Under the pieces are notes generated by a model, which was given only the letters and a program-made list of their open reading frames with translations, searched no databases and had not been told where the DNA came from. A stretch of 64,000 bases of DNA from NCBI GenBank assembly GCA_020724525.1, contig DYGU01000002.1, positions 29,388-93,387 on the forward strand, given 5' to 3'. A program made the position numbers and the translations under genes. Below, piece after piece: positions 2,281 through 63,066 of the stretch (position 1 is the stretch's first letter; each line of letters starts with the position of its first letter). The DNA is from Dehalococcoides mccartyi (GTDB lineage: Bacteria; Chloroflexota; Dehalococcoidia; GIF9; DYGU01).

Positions 2281-4321
2281 CTTTCTTATAATTATATCTC
2301 AAATTGAGAATAGACGAGAGAGCATAAAGGGTAACGGCACTGTGAGCCCCGAGCCAGGCATAGCCAATGCCGGTTATTCCTGTGGTTGGCATTAGAAAAT
2401 AACTCGTGGCAAGGATAGTTATGACTATGAAGCCCCAGACTGTTATTAGCTCCCGGAGCCTTCCAGTTACCCTGAGGACAGTAGAATAAATTAAATTAAC
2501 TCCTAAAGGTAAAGCGGAGAGCGTTAGTAGCTGGAGTAGTTTTAAGGCGTGTATAGAGTAGCTTTCGCCAAAGACGAGAAGGAGCCATTTCCCAAAGAGA
2601 AGGAAGGCAGCAATACTAGGAACTAACAATAATGAGGTAAACTTAAGAGACCGGACAATATTTTCTGTCAGCTTCTCCTGGGAATAAGAGCCCTCGGCAA
2701 AAAGGGATGAGGAGACAGCCCCGGGTATAAAAAAGAGCAGGCTGGCTATCATCAAGGAAATGTAGAAGTAAGCATTAGCTTCAGCACCAAGAACGTTCAC
2801 CACCAAGAGAGGCAAGAACCAAGAAAAGGCACTAAAAACAAGCGAAACCAGATAATTACCTCCGGAATATTTCCAGGTGTCTCGAACTAAGGGAATACTT
2901 AAGGCAGGCACTGGTCTATAGCCAGCTTGCACCCGGGGCAGAAAAAGAAAAACAACAAGGGCCAAGGTAACTGCTATAGCTATGGTCAGGGCGCCGATAA
3001 TGCCGAAACTGTAGAAAAAGAAAGATAAGAGGATAACCAAAGGAATCTTGAGGAGCGCGTGAATGTTATTCTGAAGAAAGGTGAATTTGGCACGGCGATG
3101 AGCGATGAAAACACAGCCAGCCAAGCTGGAAATTGTCCATAGTACCACAAGAAGGACAAAGATTAAGGAAAGAGCTAGGTTCTCCTTAAGATAGTTGAGG
3201 GCTGGTGACCACAGGCTAATTCCAGCAAGAAAGATAGTGGCGGAAAGAAAGCCGACAAGACCGCCAATAGTGAAGGTAGTATTGCTTAATTGATGAGGTT
3301 TTTCAGACTGGGGGAGAAACCGGATAAGGGAGGAGTCAAAACCCAAGGAGCTCAACATAATCAGAACCATGGCTGCAGAGATAACGGCTGAGGCGAAACC
3401 AACGTCAGCCGTACTGTAAAGACGGGCAACCACTACCCAGAAAACGAAGTTGAGAAAAGCCATAGCAATCGTGTTTGCCATCAGATACAAAGCATTTGTG
3501 TAGAGGGGAGGTGCCAGAATTTGCTTCAGCCATTCTACTGGCGTCAGCCGAAGCTTGATGACATCCCAGGCAACGCCGAGTCCGTGAACCACGGGATTAC
3601 TGCTGGAAGCATGAGAGTGGTAAACGCAGGAAATGGGTATTTCGGTGATAGGAAAGCCTTTGTTTCTGGCCTGGATTAGGACCTGGACGCTGAAGCCAAA
3701 GCCGTCCTCAGTCAGGTTAAGGGCTTCAAGCAACTTCCGGCTATGGGCACGAAAGCAGCTCTGGGCATCGGAGACTTTTGCTTTTGAGCCAAAATTGTAA
3801 AGAAAAGTGATGACATCAATGCCAAATTTGCGGTAGCGAGGAATCGTTTTAGAGAGATTGCTTCGGCTCTGCCTCGCAATGACAGGGGGTGGGCGCCTCG
3901 CAATGACGTTGTAGGGGGGGGGATTGCTTCGGGGCTTTGCCCCTTGCAATGACAAAGAGAGGAGGAAGCGGGAGCCGATGACCAGGTCAGACTGCCGGTT
4001 AGCAACCGGGGCGATAACCCGGGGGATTTCGTCAGGGTTGTGTTGACCATCACCGTCTAAAGTAACGACAATGTCGGCACCATTCTTCAAAGCGGCTTCA
4101 AAGCCAGTTTTGGTGGCAGCACCAGCGCCTCTTCTGGAGCTGTGCCTGATAACATTAGCTCCAGCGGCGGAGGCGGCGTCACCGGTGCTGTCATTAGAGC
4201 CATCATCAATGACGATGACCTGGTCAACATATTTCCGGGCTTGGGAGACTATTTCGCCAATAAAAGGCTGCTCGTTGTAAGCCGGGATGACAGCAATAAC
4301 TTTAGGATGCTTCTCAGTCAT
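2237..4321 (-). CDS. fusion protein: N-terminal family-2 glycosyltransferase (DPM1-like) plus C-terminal multi-TM polysaccharide flippase-like (Wzx/MOP-like) domain
   Basis: 694 aa. The N-terminus ([26 protein letters not shown]) is a GT2 DxD-type fold. The C-terminal ~430 aa are strongly hydrophobic with many predicted TM segments. The 3' end overlaps rfbA by 44 nt. Confidence 0.8.
3855..3953. repeat. cluster of gattgcttcgg...cgcaatgac repeat units lying in-frame inside the GT2 domain, including a G9/C9 homopolymer (3914-3922)
   Basis: The units gagattgcttcggctctgcctcgcaatgac, ggcgcctcgcaatgac and ggattgcttcggggctttgccccttgcaatgac encode [37 protein letters not shown]. The same motif family recurs at 8130-8264. 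Confidence 0.85.
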
Positions 4322-4866
4322 TATTCAAAGACTTCTGAGAGATTCACAGACAACTTAGGGAAGGTGAGTGAAACCAGGGTCTGAGTGTAAATGCCGAGCG
4401 TTTCAAAGCCTTTTTGCCCGAGCCGGGTTACTTCAATGGCTCGTTTCTCCGGGTCAACCAGCCAGTATTCCTTAACCCCGTGGCGAGCATAAAGAGTGCG
4501 TTTGTAGGTCCGGTCTCTCTCCGCAGTTGCTGGAGAAAGGATTTCTATAATTAAGTCAGGCGCCCCTTGAACGTTTTCCTTGGAGATGATTTGGGAACGT
4601 TCCTTTGAGACAAAGAAGATGTCTGGCTGAACTACATCCTCGTCGGAGAGAACCACATCCAGAGGGGCATGATAGATAAATCCCGGGTCATGCCTGGACA
4701 AAAAATCTCCCAAAATACGTTCTAAATTCCACGAAATTCTCTGGTGATAAGTAGTCGGTGATGGAACCATAATAAGCTCTCCTCCCAAAAGTTCATAACG
4801 CTTGGTCTCAGATTCGGGCAAGTTTCTATAATCCTTGTAAGTGAATTTAATTTTAGCTTTCGGCAC
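4321..4866 (-). CDS. Uma2 (DUF820) family restriction-endonuclease-like protein
   Basis: 181 aa. Motifs YELLGGELIMVPSPTTYHQ and PDLIIEILSPATAERDRTYKRTLYARHGVKEYWLVDP (PD-(D/E)xK-like). GTG start. Its stop overlaps the GT start as TAATG. Confidence 0.85.
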   Translation of the reverse strand: MPKAKIKFTYKDYRNLPESETKRYELLGGELIMVPSPTTYHQRISWNLERILGDFLSRHDPGFIYHAPLDVVLSDEDVVQPDIFFVSKERSQIISKENVQGAPDLIIEILSPATAERDRTYKRTLYARHGVKEYWLVDPEKRAIEVTRLGQKGFETLGIYTQTLVSLTFPKLSVNLSEVFE

Positions 4867-4974: not shown

Positions 4975-5301
4975 CTAAAGTTCCCTTGCTGTAGCTAAAA
5001 CTTCCTTGAGGAAAATCCTTTCCTTCATCTCTTCAAATTCTGGTTCAGTATAAACCAGTGGCTCTACTGGTAGGGAAGTCAAATCAAAAATCTTCTTTAT
5101 GCGCTGTGGCATCTTGCCATCAAATTCACCTACTATGATAAGGTCTATATCACTACCCTCATTGAAATTGCCCTTAGCGAAGGAGCCATAAAGATAAACC
5201 TTCTTCACTTTATGCTTGCTCTTAAGAAGATTAGCTAATTCCCTGAGCTGCTCATAAATCTTTTCACTGTCTTCAACATTAACTCGGCATAACTTATACA
5301 C
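4975..5301 (-). CDS. minimal nucleotidyltransferase (MNT), antitoxin-type partner of HEPN
   Basis: 108 aa with the motif LYGSFAKGNFNEGSDIDL (GSx10-ish DxD). It overlaps the upstream HEPN gene. Confidence 0.85.
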   Translation of the reverse strand: MYKLCRVNVEDSEKIYEQLRELANLLKSKHKVKKVYLYGSFAKGNFNEGSDIDLIIVGEFDGKMPQRIKKIFDLTSLPVEPLVYTEPEFEEMKERIFLKEVLATAREL

Positions 5302-5663: not shown

Positions 5664-5951
5664 TTACTTGACAGTGAGGAAGTTCTTGATGCGAAGCTTT
5701 ACTACTGTGAAGGCAACACCAGGCGGCTTCAAAGCTAGTCCTGGTGGCAGCACCAGCGCTTCTTCTGTGTTGTGCCTTATAACATTAGCTCCGGCGGCTG
5801 AGGCGGCGTCACCGGTGCTGTCATTAGAGCCATCGTCAATGATGATGACCTGGTCAACATATTTCCGGGCTTGGGTAACTATATCACCAACGAAGGACTG
5901 CTCGTTGTAAGCCGGGATGACAGTGATAACTTCAGGGTGGTTCAGCATCAT
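5664..5951 (-). pseudogene. truncated, frameshifted copy of the N-terminus of the GT2-flippase gene
   Basis: Nucleotide homology to 4071-4321 runs from the start codon to about 5722. There is a 1-nt deletion relative to the full copy near 5765-5775. Protein identity is lost after NVIRH. Confidence 0.8.
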
Positions 5952-6124
5952 TACTGTTTCCTACTTTTCTCTCCTTTATTCGAGCTTCTATAGGCACAAG
6001 AGCCGAAAAGGATAATCTTCTGCCGATCTACTGCTTTGACAATGCGGGAAACAACTTCCTGAACTATGCCTTATCTACACTCTCTAAACTTCTACCATTC
6101 ACCTCTTTGCTTCCTTCTTGTCCC

Positions 6125-6889: not shown

Positions 6890-7434
6890 TAAAAGACCTC
6901 GGAAAGGTTGAGGGACAATCCCGGGAGTATTGGTGAGGTCAGGGTCTTGTTATAGACGCCTACTTGCTGGAAACCTTCCTCAGTCAATATCATTACTTCT
7001 ATGGTTCGCTTGTCAGGGTCGACGAGCCAGTATTCTTTGACGCCATTTCGGGCATAAAGGGTGCGCTTATAGGTTCGGTCTCTTTCGGCTGTTGCCGGGG
7101 ACAGGATTTCTATAATTAAGTCCGGGGCTCCTTGAATGTTCTCCTCAGTGATGATTTGTGAATGCTCTTTTAAGATAAAGATGATATCAGGCTGGGCTAC
7201 GTCCTGCTCAGAAAAGACAACGTCCAAAGGGGCATTATAAATAAAACCTAAATCGTGCTTTCGGACAAGATCCCATAAAATATGCTCCAGATTTCTCGAA
7301 ATTCTCTGATGATACGTAGTTGGTGACGGAACCATAATAAGTTCTCCTTCCAGAAGCTCGTAGCGCTTGGTCTCAGACTCAGGCAGGTTTTTGTAGTCCT
7401 GATAAGTAAATTTGATTTTAGATTTCGGCATCAC
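6889..7434 (-). CDS. Uma2 (DUF820) family restriction-endonuclease-like protein, paralogue of 4321..4866
   Basis: Roughly 70 percent identical by eye to the other copy. The likely start is ATG 7431. Its stop overlaps the protease start as TAATG. Confidence 0.85.
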   Translation of the reverse strand: MMPKSKIKFTYQDYKNLPESETKRYELLEGELIMVPSPTTYHQRISRNLEHILWDLVRKHDLGFIYNAPLDVVFSEQDVAQPDIIFILKEHSQIITEENIQGAPDLIIEILSPATAERDRTYKRTLYARNGVKEYWLVDPDKRTIEVMILTEEGFQQVGVYNKTLTSPILPGLSLNLSEVF

Positions 7435-8129: not shown

Positions 8130-8264
8130 GAGATTGATTGCTAACCCCATTCTGTCATTGCAAGGGGCGTTAGCCCCGAAGCCTTGTCCTGAGTGAAACG
8201 AGGGAACTCCATAAGATTGCCACGCCTGCGGCTCGCAATGACGGGGAGAAATTGCTAATCACTC
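8130..8264. repeat. intergenic composite repeat with inverted gtcattgcaagg / ctcgcaatgac modules and MITE-like ends
   Basis: The left end is gagattgattgctaacc. The reverse complement of the right end is gagtgattagcaattt. The internal modules are the same motif family as 3855-3953. No clean target-site duplication was seen. Confidence 0.6.
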
Positions 8265-32819: not shown

Positions 32820-32872
32820 AATCTATCTCCAAATCCGGGGCCCCCTGAAAAACTTCGTTTTTCAGGGGTGTT
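32820..32872 (-). repeat. palindromic repeat, copy 1 (perfect 12-bp stem cccctgaaaaac/gtttttcagggg)
   Basis: Its reverse complement aligns with 63013-63066: aacacccctgaaaaacNaagtttttcagNgg...atttNg..tagatt. Confidence 0.8.
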
Positions 32873-33782: not shown

Positions 33783-34688
33783 GTGGCAACTACCCCAGGC
33801 ATCCGCCTTGACAAATACTTAGCTGAGACATGTTCCGGGCTTTCCCGTTCTTACCTTCAAAAACTAATTCAACAAGGTTATATTTTAGTTCAGGACAAAT
33901 GGGCAAAACCAAGTCAGAAGCTCCAGGTTGGGGACAGGATAACTATTACTTTACCACCGCCAGTTACTTCATTAGTTGCTGAGCCTATTCCGGTAACTAT
34001 TATCTATGAAGATAAAGACCTTTTGATTGTAGATAAGCCGGCGGGGCTAACCGTTTATCCAGCACCAGGACATCCCAGCCAAACTTTGGTCAATGCTCTG
34101 TTAGCTTGTTGTCTTGAACTGGCTAACATAGATAACTCCTTGCGTCCGGGCATAGTCCACCGCCTGGATAAAGATACTTCAGGGCTAATGATTGTAGCTA
34201 AAAACAAAGCCGCTCAGCAAAATTTGGTTGACCAGTTCAAGTCTCGTTCTGTAGTGAAGGGTTATTTAGTCTTGGTCAAAGGTAAATTGAGTCCAGAGCG
34301 AGGGACGATTGAAGTACCTATCGGACGCCATCCTGTCTATCGAAAACGAATGGCAGTAGTTAGTGGTGGCAGAGAAGCCCGAACCCATTATCAGGTGAGG
34401 CAATATCGGGGAGACTATACCCTCGTGGAAGCTAATCCGGAGACGGGCAGGACACATCAAATACGAGTTCATTTATCAGCTATTGGTTATCCTGTAGTCG
34501 GTGATGCCACTTATGGTGTGAAGTCACCTTACCTCAGCCGGCAATTTGTCCATGCTTACTACTTAAAATTTCACTTGCCTTCTACAGGAGAATACAGGGA
34601 ATTTACCTGTGATTTGCCTTTAGACCTTCGTCGAGCTTTGGAAATGGTTTCTTCGAGATTGCTTACCAATACTTATCCACCATCCTGA
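33783..34688 (+). CDS. rluD: 23S rRNA pseudouridine synthase, RluA/RluD family
   Basis: 301 aa. S4 domain plus HRLDKDTSGL and RTHQIRVH. The last 10 codons and the stop are supplied by a MITE. Confidence 0.9.
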   Translation: MATTPGIRLDKYLAETCSGLSRSYLQKLIQQGYILVQDKWAKPSQKLQVGDRITITLPPPVTSLVAEPIPVTIIYEDKDLLIVDKPAGLTVYPAPGHPSQTLVNALLACCLELANIDNSLRPGIVHRLDKDTSGLMIVAKNKAAQQNLVDQFKSRSVVKGYLVLVKGKLSPERGTIEVPIGRHPVYRKRMAVVSGGREARTHYQVRQYRGDYTLVEANPETGRTHQIRVHLSAIGYPVVGDATYGVKSPYLSRQFVHAYYLKFHLPSTGEYREFTCDLPLDLRRALEMVSSRLLTNTYPPS

Positions 34689-34764
34689 ACAAAGTGGAGA
34701 AACCCTCACCTACCCTCTCCCTTGAAGGGAGAGGAATAAGCAGAGGGTGACAAACTAAACAATC
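34655..34764 (+). mobile_element. MITE-like element, copy B1, flanked by a perfect 9-bp duplication ggtttcttc
   Basis: Direct repeats lie at 34646-34654 and 34765-34773. The ends are gagattgcttaccaat... and ...caaactaaacaatc. The central hairpin is cctcacctaccctctccc ttgaa gggagaggaataag. Confidence 0.85.
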
Positions 34765-34840
34765 GGTTTCTTCAGGTCTTGCTTAAATCGGGGAAGTGTG
34801 TTACACTATAAATCAAAGTCAATATAGGGATGTGATAGAG

Positions 34841-35125
34841 ATGCCGGGGCTGAAAGAATTTGAGGAATCCATGGCTAAACTGAGGCGGGAGCAAATGGAA
34901 AGGGAACAGGGACTCCTGTCTCAGTTGATGAGTCAGGCTCAGACAACTAAGGATTTGAAGGTTTTTGAAGCCGACTTGGCAGCACGGAAGAATGAGATTT
35001 TATTTAAGGTCACGGCTGAGATTGAAGATTGCCAGAATGCAGTAAGGGAGGCTGAAGAGCTCACTAACCGGCTCAAAAAACACCTCATTCAATTGCAGAA
35101 TTTACATCGTATCCTTACCCGATAA
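34841..35125 (+). CDS. hypothetical coiled-coil protein
   Basis: Charged helical sequence with no motif. ATG 34841 is preferred over the upstream GTG 34796. Confidence 0.4.
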   Translation: MPGLKEFEESMAKLRREQMEREQGLLSQLMSQAQTTKDLKVFEADLAARKNEILFKVTAEIEDCQNAVREAEELTNRLKKHLIQLQNLHRILTR

Positions 35126-40910: not shown

Positions 40911-41415
40911 TTAGAATCTTTCGAACATCCTTAAGATTTCTTTCGCCTCTTCCACGCTACCTTTTGGTGGCTGTTCCTTTTGAGGTAGATGTAGGAGACC
41001 AAATTTTAACTGAAATCTGAGGCAATCCATAATCGATAACCCCCAAATTACAGTAACGTCACAATTCCCACAATCTCCGTTACACCTCTCAATGATAGCA
41101 AGAAGTTCGTCTTGGTGGCTGTTCCTTTTGAGGTAGATGTAGGAGACCAAATTTTAACTGAAATCTGAGGCAATCCATAATCGATAACCCCCAAATTACA
41201 GTAACGTCACAATTCCCACAATCTCCGTTACACCTCTCAATGATAGCAAGAAGTTCGTCTGTGCTCTCATAGCAGACTTCTTCATAAGGAGCCAGAGGAG
41301 TAAGTTTGCCTTTATAATATGAATCTTCGTCTCCAGCAAGAGTAACCCAGCCTTCTCCCTCCCCTAAATCAAACGCCTTTCGACACCTTGCACAAACCCA
41401 TTTTGATTCATTCAT
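40911..41415 (-). pseudogene. Cys-rich small protein gene between R and M genes, frameshifted by a 148-bp tandem duplication
   Basis: ORFs 41089..41415 and 40911..41150 share the identical segment DELLAIIERCNGDCGNCDVTVIWGLSIMDCLRFQLKFGLLHLPQKEQPP. Removing one repeat restores a single ORF of about 118 aa. Confidence 0.65.
40964..41259. repeat. perfect tandem direct duplication, 2 x 148 bp
   Basis: A base-by-base comparison at offset 148 shows 40964-41111 equal to 41112-41259, plus one extra matching base at 41260. The match breaks at 40963/41111 and 41113/41261. Confidence 0.95.
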
Positions 41416-46145: not shown

Positions 46146-46260
46146 AGAGTGTTTATTTTGTCACCCTCACCTTATCCCTCTCCCTTGAAGGGAGAGGGAT
46201 AAGGTGAGGGGTTTCTCCGCCTTGTTCAGGATGGTGGATCAGCATTGGTAAACAACCTCT
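46146..46260 (-). mobile_element. MITE-like element, copy B2, flanked by attatacg / attataca
   Basis: Aligns along its full length with 51512-51620 and, in reverse complement, with 34655-34764. The flanking 8-bp repeats at 46138-46145 and 46261-46268 differ at one position. Confidence 0.8.
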
Positions 46261-51511: not shown

Positions 51512-51620
51512 GAGTGTTTATTTTGTCACCCTCACCTACCCTCTCCCTTGAAGGGAGAGGAATAAGGTGAGGGTTTCTCCGCTTTGTTCGGAATGGTGGA
51601 TAGGCATCGGTAAACAATCT
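51512..51620 (-). mobile_element. MITE-like element, copy B3, flanked by caaattgg(g)
   Basis: Direct repeats lie at 51504-51511 and 51621-51628. Near-identical to copy B2. Confidence 0.85.
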
Positions 51621-51734
51621 CAAATTGGGGGAAACGATGAATGTCAAACGGGGAACTACTAAATAGTCTCAAATTGAGAGTTGAGTCAACATTGGCGACA
51701 GCGATATTATGTTTGAGCAGAATGAACCTTTAAT

Positions 51735-53464: not shown

Positions 53465-53501
53465 AATTAATTTTTCAACTATGAAGTTTGGCAGTAAGTA
53501 T

Positions 53502-53598
53502 GTTTAGCAATGTAGCGCGAGGCTTTAGCCTCGCGCTACAAAAAAGCGACCCTAAAGGGTCGCACTACATTCAAAATAAGTTATTGATAAACACTCTT
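53502..53598 (+). mobile_element. MITE-like element, variant copy C1, flanked by gcagtaagtat
   Basis: Direct repeats lie at 53491-53501 and 53599-53609. The termini gtttagcaatg... and ...gataaacactc match the B copies. The internal hairpins differ (gtagcgcgaggc ttta gcctcgcgctac, and gcgaccc taaa gggtcgc). Confidence 0.8.
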
Positions 53599-53640
53599 GC
53601 AGTAAGTATTGATGTTGTTGGAGTGAGGTGATACTATAAA

Positions 53641-62883: not shown

Positions 62884-62971
62884 TAATTGGGAGGCTTTAG
62901 TTTACTAATGTAGTGCGAGGCTAAAGCCTCGCACTACATTGAAAATAAATTGTTGATAAACACTTTTTAAC
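62884..62971 (+). mobile_element. MITE-like element, variant copy C2, flanked by aattaacttt
   Basis: Direct repeats lie at 62874-62883 and 62972-62981. It contains gtttactaatg, the hairpin gtagtgcgaggc taaa gcctcgcactac, and the end gataaacact. Confidence 0.75.
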
Positions 62972-63012: not shown

Positions 63013-63066
63013 AACACCCCTGAAAAACAAAGTTTTTCAGAGGACCCAATTTAGGTGGGGTAGATT
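63013..63066 (+). repeat. palindromic repeat, copy 2, ending at the rplJ start codon
   Basis: Aligns with the reverse complement of 32820-32872. The stem cccctgaaaaac/gtttttcagagg has one mismatch. Confidence 0.75.

Follow-up and report, generated by a model that had tools for sequence, protein, structure and literature searches.

The locus analysed here raises a question about the history of a housekeeping gene: did rluD, in the 64-kb stretch of DNA under study (64,000 nucleotides; hereafter the window), receive its present 3′ end from a mobile repeat that landed in its last codons? The initial annotation of this DNA proposed as much, describing a MITE insertion with a perfect 9-bp target duplication that had replaced the C-terminus and stop codon of the gene. 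We confirm that the insertion in rluD holds, and its interpretation as a mobile-repeat insertion is supported; on the evidence set out below we regard it as very likely that a MITE-like insertion with a 9-bp duplication rewrote the end of rluD to near-neutral effect, after mobilisation of the repeat in trans.

The host gene was assigned by its domains and by structural homology. Its product carries Pfam domains PF01479 (S4) and PF00849 (PseudoU_synth_2) and matches RluD structures in the Protein Data Bank (1v9f/1qyu; E = 1.7e-51) over residues 6–289 of 301, and is accordingly predicted to be RluD, a 23S rRNA pseudouridine synthase of the RluA family. The conserved 94-aa open reading frame 3′ of rluD matched no Pfam family. 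Features of the locus and of related repeats in the window are collected in Table 1.

Table 1. Coordinates of rluD, the inserted element and related repeats in the 64-kb window.
Feature	Position	Strand	Details
rluD	33783-34688	+	RluA-family pseudouridine synthase with S4 domain (predicted), 301-aa allele, ends ...ALEMVSSRLLTNTYPPS-stop (ORF list, Pfam, PDB)
Left 9-bp target-site duplication GGTTTCTTC	34646-34654	+	Still codes V-S-S
MITE-like non-autonomous repeat, copy 1, 110 bp	34655-34764	+	Three-copy alignment; nhmmer E = 2e-34
Left terminal inverted repeat GAGATTGCTTAC of copy 1	34655-34666	+	Family consensus GAG(R)TTGTTTACC
New TGA stop of rluD, element-supplied	34686-34688	+	
Central hairpin ACCCTCACCTACCCTCTCCCTT-G-AAGGGAGAGGAATAAGCAGAGGGT of copy 1	34702-34748	+	
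Right terminal inverted repeat CTAAACAATC of copy 1	34755-34764	+	Family consensus ATAAACACTC
Right 9-bp target-site duplication GGTTTCTTC	34765-34773	+	
Non-coding relic of ancestral rluD 3′ end, A-GGT-CTT-GCT-TAA (S-G-L-A-stop)	34774-34786	+	Relatives' alignment and reconstruction
Conserved 94-aa ORF 3′ of rluD	34842-35125	+	Gene calls in L004, L001, L003, L017
Copy 2 of element	46147-46259	-	Between divergent polA and ornithine-carbamoyltransferase-like genes; flanks TTGTATAAT(A) / TCGTATAAT, 8/9
Copy 3 of element	51512-51621	-	Between divergent dnaJ and NUDIX genes; flanks CCAATTT / CCAATTT
Possible sister element, 96 bp	53501-53596	+	Terminal cores TGTTTAGCAATG ... TGATAAACACTC; body of two GTAG-headed palindromes

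The 9-mer GGTTTCTTC was read on both sides of the 110-bp element, as annotated, and on the forward strand of the window it occurs at positions 34646 and 34765 only. At the base composition of the window (44.9% G+C), the probability that two 9-mers a fixed distance apart agree is about 4e-6; in a sample of 200,000 random positions, five showed one. The present tail can likewise be read directly: the open reading frame is 301 aa long and closes with exactly the ...ALEMVSS-RLLTNTYPPS-stop that had been reported, its frame extending 34 nt into the element, where the last 10 codons and the TGA lie together with the third base of Ser291. Deletion of 34655–34773 yields a 294-aa frame with the predicted ending ...ALEMVSSGLA-stop (...RRALEMVSSGLA-stop), and the reconstructed empty-site junction is GGTTTCTTC-AGGTCTTGC, within a site that reads ...ATGGTTTCTTCAGGTCTTGCTTAA. 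Three amino acids of the ancestral C-terminus (...SS-GLA-stop) have thus been swapped for ten (...SS-RLLTNTYPPS-stop), and the distance from the rluD stop to the 94-aa open reading frame has grown from 55 nt before the insertion to 153 nt now.

The reconstructed allele has natural counterparts. When the RluD protein was used as a query against ~5.8 billion proteins, the nearest relatives among the matches listed were P0002 (84% identity, 294 aa, ending ...ALELVSSSLA), P0003 (82%, 294 aa, ...VLELIASGLA) and P0004 (85%, called at 282 aa with an equivalent C-terminus, ...TLELVSSGLA). Comparison of rluD 3′ ends, as the initial annotation had proposed, recovered the empty site in three out of three relatives whose DNA was aligned to that of the window (L001, L002 and L003): they read ...GG(T/A)TT(T/G)C(T/C/A)TC(A/C)(G/A)GTCTTGCTTAA, with one 9-mer site and no element, and run uninterrupted through that single site into AGGTCTTGCTTAA, exactly where the window has the element and the second 9-mer. 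The 13 nt at 34774–34786 match the consensus for the final codons and stop codon of the relatives at every base. Gene order in the relatives is that of the window (a DksA/TraR-type zinc-finger gene, lspA, rluD, a small open reading frame, an RDD gene and gltX), and among them we found none that lacks the repeat yet encodes ...SSRLLTNTYPPS, an observation that had been named as one that would speak against the insertion. The insertion, its duplication and the empty site are all visible in the DNA itself.

These comparisons also bear on the polarity of the event. The element might instead be ancestral at rluD, with the relatives having lost it along with one 9-mer by precise excision, and the number of empty-site relatives compared at the DNA level—only three—leaves some room for such a history. 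We nevertheless judge it highly improbable. The RLLTNTYPPS tail appears in none of the 119 other listed homologues, all 119 of which are without an element-derived tail; the more distant homologues have short, varied tails, and the outgroups at 65–77% identity likewise carry short ordinary ones. Excision would need to restore the exact GLA-stop frame of outgroup-like relatives, the flanking direct repeat is itself a signature of insertion, and P0005-P0009 already suggest that the window lineage is nested among empty-site lineages. In the history that we favour, a 110-bp non-autonomous MITE-like element landed among the final codons of rluD in the ancestry of the source organism and duplicated its 9-bp target GGTTTCTTC, and the old GLA-stop codons were left as a non-coding relic just 3′ of the second 9-mer; mobilisation of the element would have been effected in trans by a transposase making staggered cuts of ~7–11 bp.

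Short-read assemblies do break or become wrongly joined at repeats, and several contigs terminate within the element, so that an assembly artefact—a repeat wrongly joined into rluD—deserves consideration. The insertion allele, however, was assembled independently in JGI 3300029893, GCA_003589615.1, SRR13164376, SRR5011273 and SRR7867194. The 111.8-kb contig that is the source of the window (JGI 3300029893) and an independent 2.5-kb contig span the structure identically and agree across its full length, while in three further independent assemblies the change from rluD to element sequence falls at the identical base. Because the same allele appears in five independent assemblies, we treat an artefact as ruled out for all practical purposes. 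Short-read contigs from other samples that end inside the element hairpin are to be expected, as the element is present in multiple copies. No empty-site allele was seen in the same species: both members of the 90% cluster are the 301-aa insertion allele, and they represent one protein with a GTG start rendered as V or M. The insertion is fixed or nearly so, being the sole allele recorded for the species across the five independent assemblies.

The structure of the element agrees with its original description as a repeat with imperfect terminal inverted repeats and a long central hairpin. In copy 1 the termini are GAGATTGCTTAC and, in reverse complement, GATTGTTTAG; they are short (~10–12 bp) and imperfect, and every complete copy examined shows the consensus GAG(R)TTGTTTAC on the left and GAGTGTTTAT (reverse complement) on the right. 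The right end of the IS-bearing copy on contig L024 deviates from this consensus. The hairpin comprises nine perfect pairs and an outer stem in copy 1 and 23 perfect pairs in copy 2; the folding energy of copy 1, computed over all 128 nt, is unexceptional (z = -1.6). The three copies in the window are mutually 83–89% identical and have in common the ends GAG(R)TTGTTTACC ... GTGACAAA(A/C)TAAACA(C/A)TC and a central palindrome. Element size is 110–113 bp, with a two-hairpin variant of 142–143 bp, and we found no coding capacity, all six frames being short or closed. No Rfam family matched the element at the gathering score, and E-values up to 10 gave chance-level hairpin matches only. The TGA that now ends rluD is also present in copy 2 and absent from copy 3; it is an incidental feature of the element.

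A search for additional copies, which the initial annotation had recommended, revealed a family of at least eight with conserved ends and varying flanks. The window has three, a fourth lies just beyond it, and other contigs that bear the IS and come from the window's datasets account for at least four. A profile built from the three window copies detected no further copy within the window. The fourth copy lies 1.8 kb past the 3′ end of the window (L015, 11800–11941), with a prepilin peptidase gene on one side and a pilin gene on the other; it has a second hairpin and no visible direct repeat, and brings the count to four copies in ~84 kb of the source genome. Direct repeats measure 9 bp at rluD and 7–9 bp at the two other window copies. 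At copy 2 the repeat is T(T/C)GTATAAT, with an 8/9 match and one extra base at the left edge; at copy 3 it is 7 bp and perfect, extending to as many as 9 bp with a 1-nt shift of the boundary. The suggestion that the flanking 9-mer might be part of the repeat consensus is refuted by these other flanks (T(T/C)GTATAAT, CCAATTT and others): as they vary between copies, the 9-mer is a target duplication and not element sequence.

One apparent regularity of the copies was set aside. In five of five fully or partly flanked copies the right end falls 25–82 bp upstream of a gene start, but three of the five occupy spacers between divergent genes, and there the same result follows whatever the orientation.

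Might the element be a palindrome of the REP/BIME type, or some other structured repeat spread by RAYT or by recombination, with the 9-mer a coincidence? The hairpin core (CCCTCTCCCTTNAAGGGAGAGGG..GGTGAGGG) does recur in unrelated contigs, for example six times in L009, and the same genome has GTAG-headed palindromes. However, the hairpin of the element is without a GTAG head, its ends are well defined, lie well outside the hairpin and are conserved between copies, and REPs create no target duplications, whereas the duplication here is exact, the pre-insertion sequence can be restored base for base and the 9-mer has the low chance expectation given above. We consider a REP-type origin very unlikely.

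Insertion of a MITE accords with all of the structural and behavioural features: the element is small and non-coding, its terminal repeats are conserved among copies, its target duplications are copy-specific, its copies are dispersed in one genome and its orthologous site is empty in relatives. This much of the MITE designation in the initial annotation was borne out; the related autonomous IS with matching ends for which it had recommended a search was not found, so the label rests on structure and behaviour. No transposase genes are encoded in the window or its flanks. Genome and metagenome scans, which were shallow, exact-pattern searches with one motif per collection, returned a single locus each: the right-end motif hit contig L005 among 185,579 representative genomes, and the left-internal motif hit the same rluD allele among metagenomes. 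Viral contigs yielded hairpin-core look-alikes or a chance match only, with no autonomous IS; BLAST searches of plasmids and phages gave matches of 35–45% coverage to the hairpin or nothing, with no record having the element; and the concatenated translated frames of the element matched nothing at E <= 0.1 in the 5.8-billion-protein collection.

The hairpin has a distribution of its own. Its core, CCCTCTCCC-N-GGGAGAGGG followed by GGGGTGAGGGTG, is repeated in unrelated contigs that have no element ends (L009, from IMG/VR, with six sites; L008; L010; L011), and this module is far more widespread than the 110-bp element.

Besides the known copies, a scan for paired terminal cores found the 96-bp repeat listed last in Table 1, which is flanked by an 11-bp direct repeat, GCAGTAAGTAT (53491–53501 and 53599–53609). 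Since ~0.3 such pairs would be expected by chance, a sister family is suggestive only; this repeat may represent one moved by the same transposase as the element. A more diverged relative lies near 62891–62958.

The window contains other small repeats. GTAG-headed palindromes (TGTAGTGCGAGGCTAAAGCCTCGCACTACA and variants) recur at 62891–62967 and 53508–53598, and also beside an IS110-family element on an unrelated Dehalococcoidia contig (L031, ~5199–5300); these look like classic REP-type repeats. A repeated hairpin, CCCCTGAAAAAC...GTTTTTCAGGGG, occurs at 32838–32872 and 63013–63047 (91% complementary between the two), just upstream of the DksA/TraR-type gene and of rplJ, and a short repeat, AGATTGC...GCCTCGCAATGAC, at 3855–3887 and 8214–8246, as well as in L021 (~400–440) and at the end of L011. 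Duplicated segments with 75–91% identity are found at 4092–4727, 5723–5953 and 6993–7292; in the corresponding region of a sister contig (L012) there are two Uma2-family endonuclease genes among glycosyltransferase genes. At 40964–41259, inside a small open reading frame flanked by a restriction-endonuclease-like gene (RE_MjaI) and by the gene for an N6/N4 DNA methyltransferase, there is a perfect tandem duplication (148 bp x2, 100% identical), which shifts the frame because 148 is not a multiple of 3 and which could be real or an assembly artefact. The source genome seems to abound in small repeats of several unrelated families.

The single genome locus with the right-end motif led beyond the window to an insertion sequence; the observations on this IS come from L005 and from L021-L028, contigs outside the window. 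On L005, a 1.6-kb contig, a complete copy of the element lies directly 3′ of a gene for a 339-aa DEDD transposase of the IS110 family, with domains PF01548 and PF02371 (Transposase_20; E ~1e-23 to 1e-24). L005 (DYFG01000231.1) is filed under an archaeal (Nitrosotalea) metagenome-assembled genome; as its IS and repeat otherwise co-occur with the Chloroflexota-like window organism, this placement is probably a binning error. The identical IS protein is encoded on nine short contigs from the window organism's datasets, including the window's own metagenome, and the IS co-occurs with the window organism in six datasets.

On all eight contigs examined the IS is 1212 bp long and carries a perfect 14-bp inverted repeat in subterminal position, set back 6 and 4 bp from the two tips, and its non-coding sequence amounts to 137 nt 3′ of the transposase gene versus 55 nt 5′ of it. 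Subterminal repeats and a long 3′ non-coding region are hallmarks of the IS1111 group, members of which use a seekRNA or bridge RNA (PMC11187229), and by these features the IS is assigned, as a sequence-based classification, to the IS1111 group of the IS110 family. Where a contig reaches past the IS, the left junction reads GAGGT-TG-ATTACA (GAGAG-TG on L024) and the right CAGAGA-TG-TTTACCAATGC. Set against the start of the intact element (GAGGTTGTTTACCAATGC), these junctions place the IS at a constant position within the left terminal repeat, with an insertion point GAGGT^TG^TTTACC, a TG at both junctions and a putative target GAGGTTGTTTACC. Across eight contigs we counted at least four upstream flanks and at least three downstream types of element body; since assembly across a multi-copy IS can produce chimeras, left and right flanks were not paired. 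This variety of flanks and bodies indicates that the IS entered several copies of the element and moves on its own.

Two segments of the IS 3′ region, GAGGCTGATT and AGAGATGTATA, match the left and the right junction, respectively, with a single mismatch apiece. Individually these resemblances have chance probabilities of p ~0.02 and ~0.007, and both together arose in 0 of 5000 shuffles. In two relatives of the IS (65–67% identity), which are inserted in unrelated targets, the same scaffold is present and the segments change together with the relative's own flank or IS end. Rfam has no family for the 3′ region. The segments resemble the junctions as would be expected of a seekRNA or bridge RNA, and we put them forward as a candidate guide–target pair.

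Given this association—the IS is joined to element copies on nine contigs and accompanies the window organism in six datasets—one might ask whether an IS110/IS1111-type recombinase itself moves the element by RNA-guided circle integration, the flanking repeat then being a recombination core. We think this extremely unlikely. An IS110-type core is donor-derived and must be constant, whereas the flanks GGTTTCTTC, CCAATTT and GTATAAT differ; and, with flanking repeats that vary among the copies of the element, the rluD insertion cannot be explained by this IS110-type enzyme. The IS, moreover, has constant ends of its own, sits in the left terminal repeat beside at least three body variants and has relatives that occupy unrelated targets. 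Mobilisation in trans by a separate transposase, with target duplication, is the reading that we retain for rluD. We incline, with some reservation, to the view that the 110-bp element and the sister family are previously undescribed modular MITEs whose left repeat serves as the landing site of an RNA-guided IS1111-type recombinase. If true, this would make a three-layer nesting, from gene to MITE to guide-RNA-directed IS, with guide segments in the IS 3′ non-coding region.

What the insertion has done to the gene can be gauged from the protein. Homology to Escherichia coli RluD stops at residue 289, which puts the exchange of tails past the conserved fold; since the altered residues lie beyond that fold, in a tail that is variable among homologues, the change is probably near-neutral for RluD. 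The upstream region of the 94-aa open reading frame, 3′ of the insertion, is conserved in all four genomes. A consensus scan of 34400–35000 for promoters and terminators detected nothing promoter-like, and nothing terminator-like within the element, which leaves a promoter or terminator role for the element unsupported. For annotation, the last 10 residues of the RluD annotated here are transposon-derived, and the element disrupts short-read assemblies of its source organism.

The locus is an unusually complete natural record of a small repeat that gave an essential-pathway gene a new end but did not destroy it, with the pre-insertion allele, the duplication, the stranded old stop and the empty site all readable. 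In the literature searched we found no paper linking MITEs with Dehalococcoidia, and the element itself is an undescribed example of a known process. Correia elements of Neisseria and IS630-derived MITEs duplicate TA, and Rickettsia palindromic elements enter genes in frame and leave no clear duplication. The element described here differs from repeats of the Correia and Rickettsia type in its 7–11-bp duplication and its unrelated termini. Rickettsia palindromic elements and Correia, ERIC and cyanobacterial Nezha/Chunjie repeats are likewise ~100–150 bp long, with inverted-repeat ends and hairpin potential; they are found both within and between genes, and some are translated into host proteins. 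The entry of small repeats into coding regions, where they supply new protein ends, is well documented (PMC2229807, Delihas).

The closest parallel, one of organisation, is QMITE2 of Coxiella burnetii, which is also small and non-autonomous, with terminal inverted repeats and a stable hairpin, and overlaps the C-termini of housekeeping genes. QMITE2 has variable direct repeats of 7–11 nt and lies mostly at the 3′ ends of open reading frames and in intergenic regions; the EnhC protein of strain Dugway owes its final 33 aa to a QMITE2 copy that lies in frame (PMC5896051, Wachter et al. 2018). An IS1111-family element also inserts preferentially into QMITE2, and the 'missing' 10–20 bp are found beyond the IS, on its far side (PMC5896051). 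The two cases differ in host (Gammaproteobacteria versus an uncultured Chloroflexota-like lineage), in size (150–190 versus 110 bp) and in the target of the IS, which in QMITE2 is a GTAG REP palindrome and here is the left terminal inverted repeat itself. IS4321 and IS5075 insert into Tn21-family transposons at their terminal repeats (PMC219399, as cited in PMC11187229); with these and with IS1111 the IS described here has in common a DEDD transposase, subterminal repeats, a 3′ non-coding region and apparently orientation- and position-specific insertion into a terminal inverted repeat, but its target is a 110-bp MITE-like repeat and not the end of a Tn21-family transposon. Set beside the seekRNA and bridge RNA studies of the IS1111 group (PMC11187229, PMC11208160), it would add an example from a Chloroflexota lineage of RNA-guided elements that target other repeats. 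As Coxiella QMITE2 already shows both phenomena, current understanding is unchanged, and the rluD insertion takes its place beside it as a clean, instructive and ordinary case.
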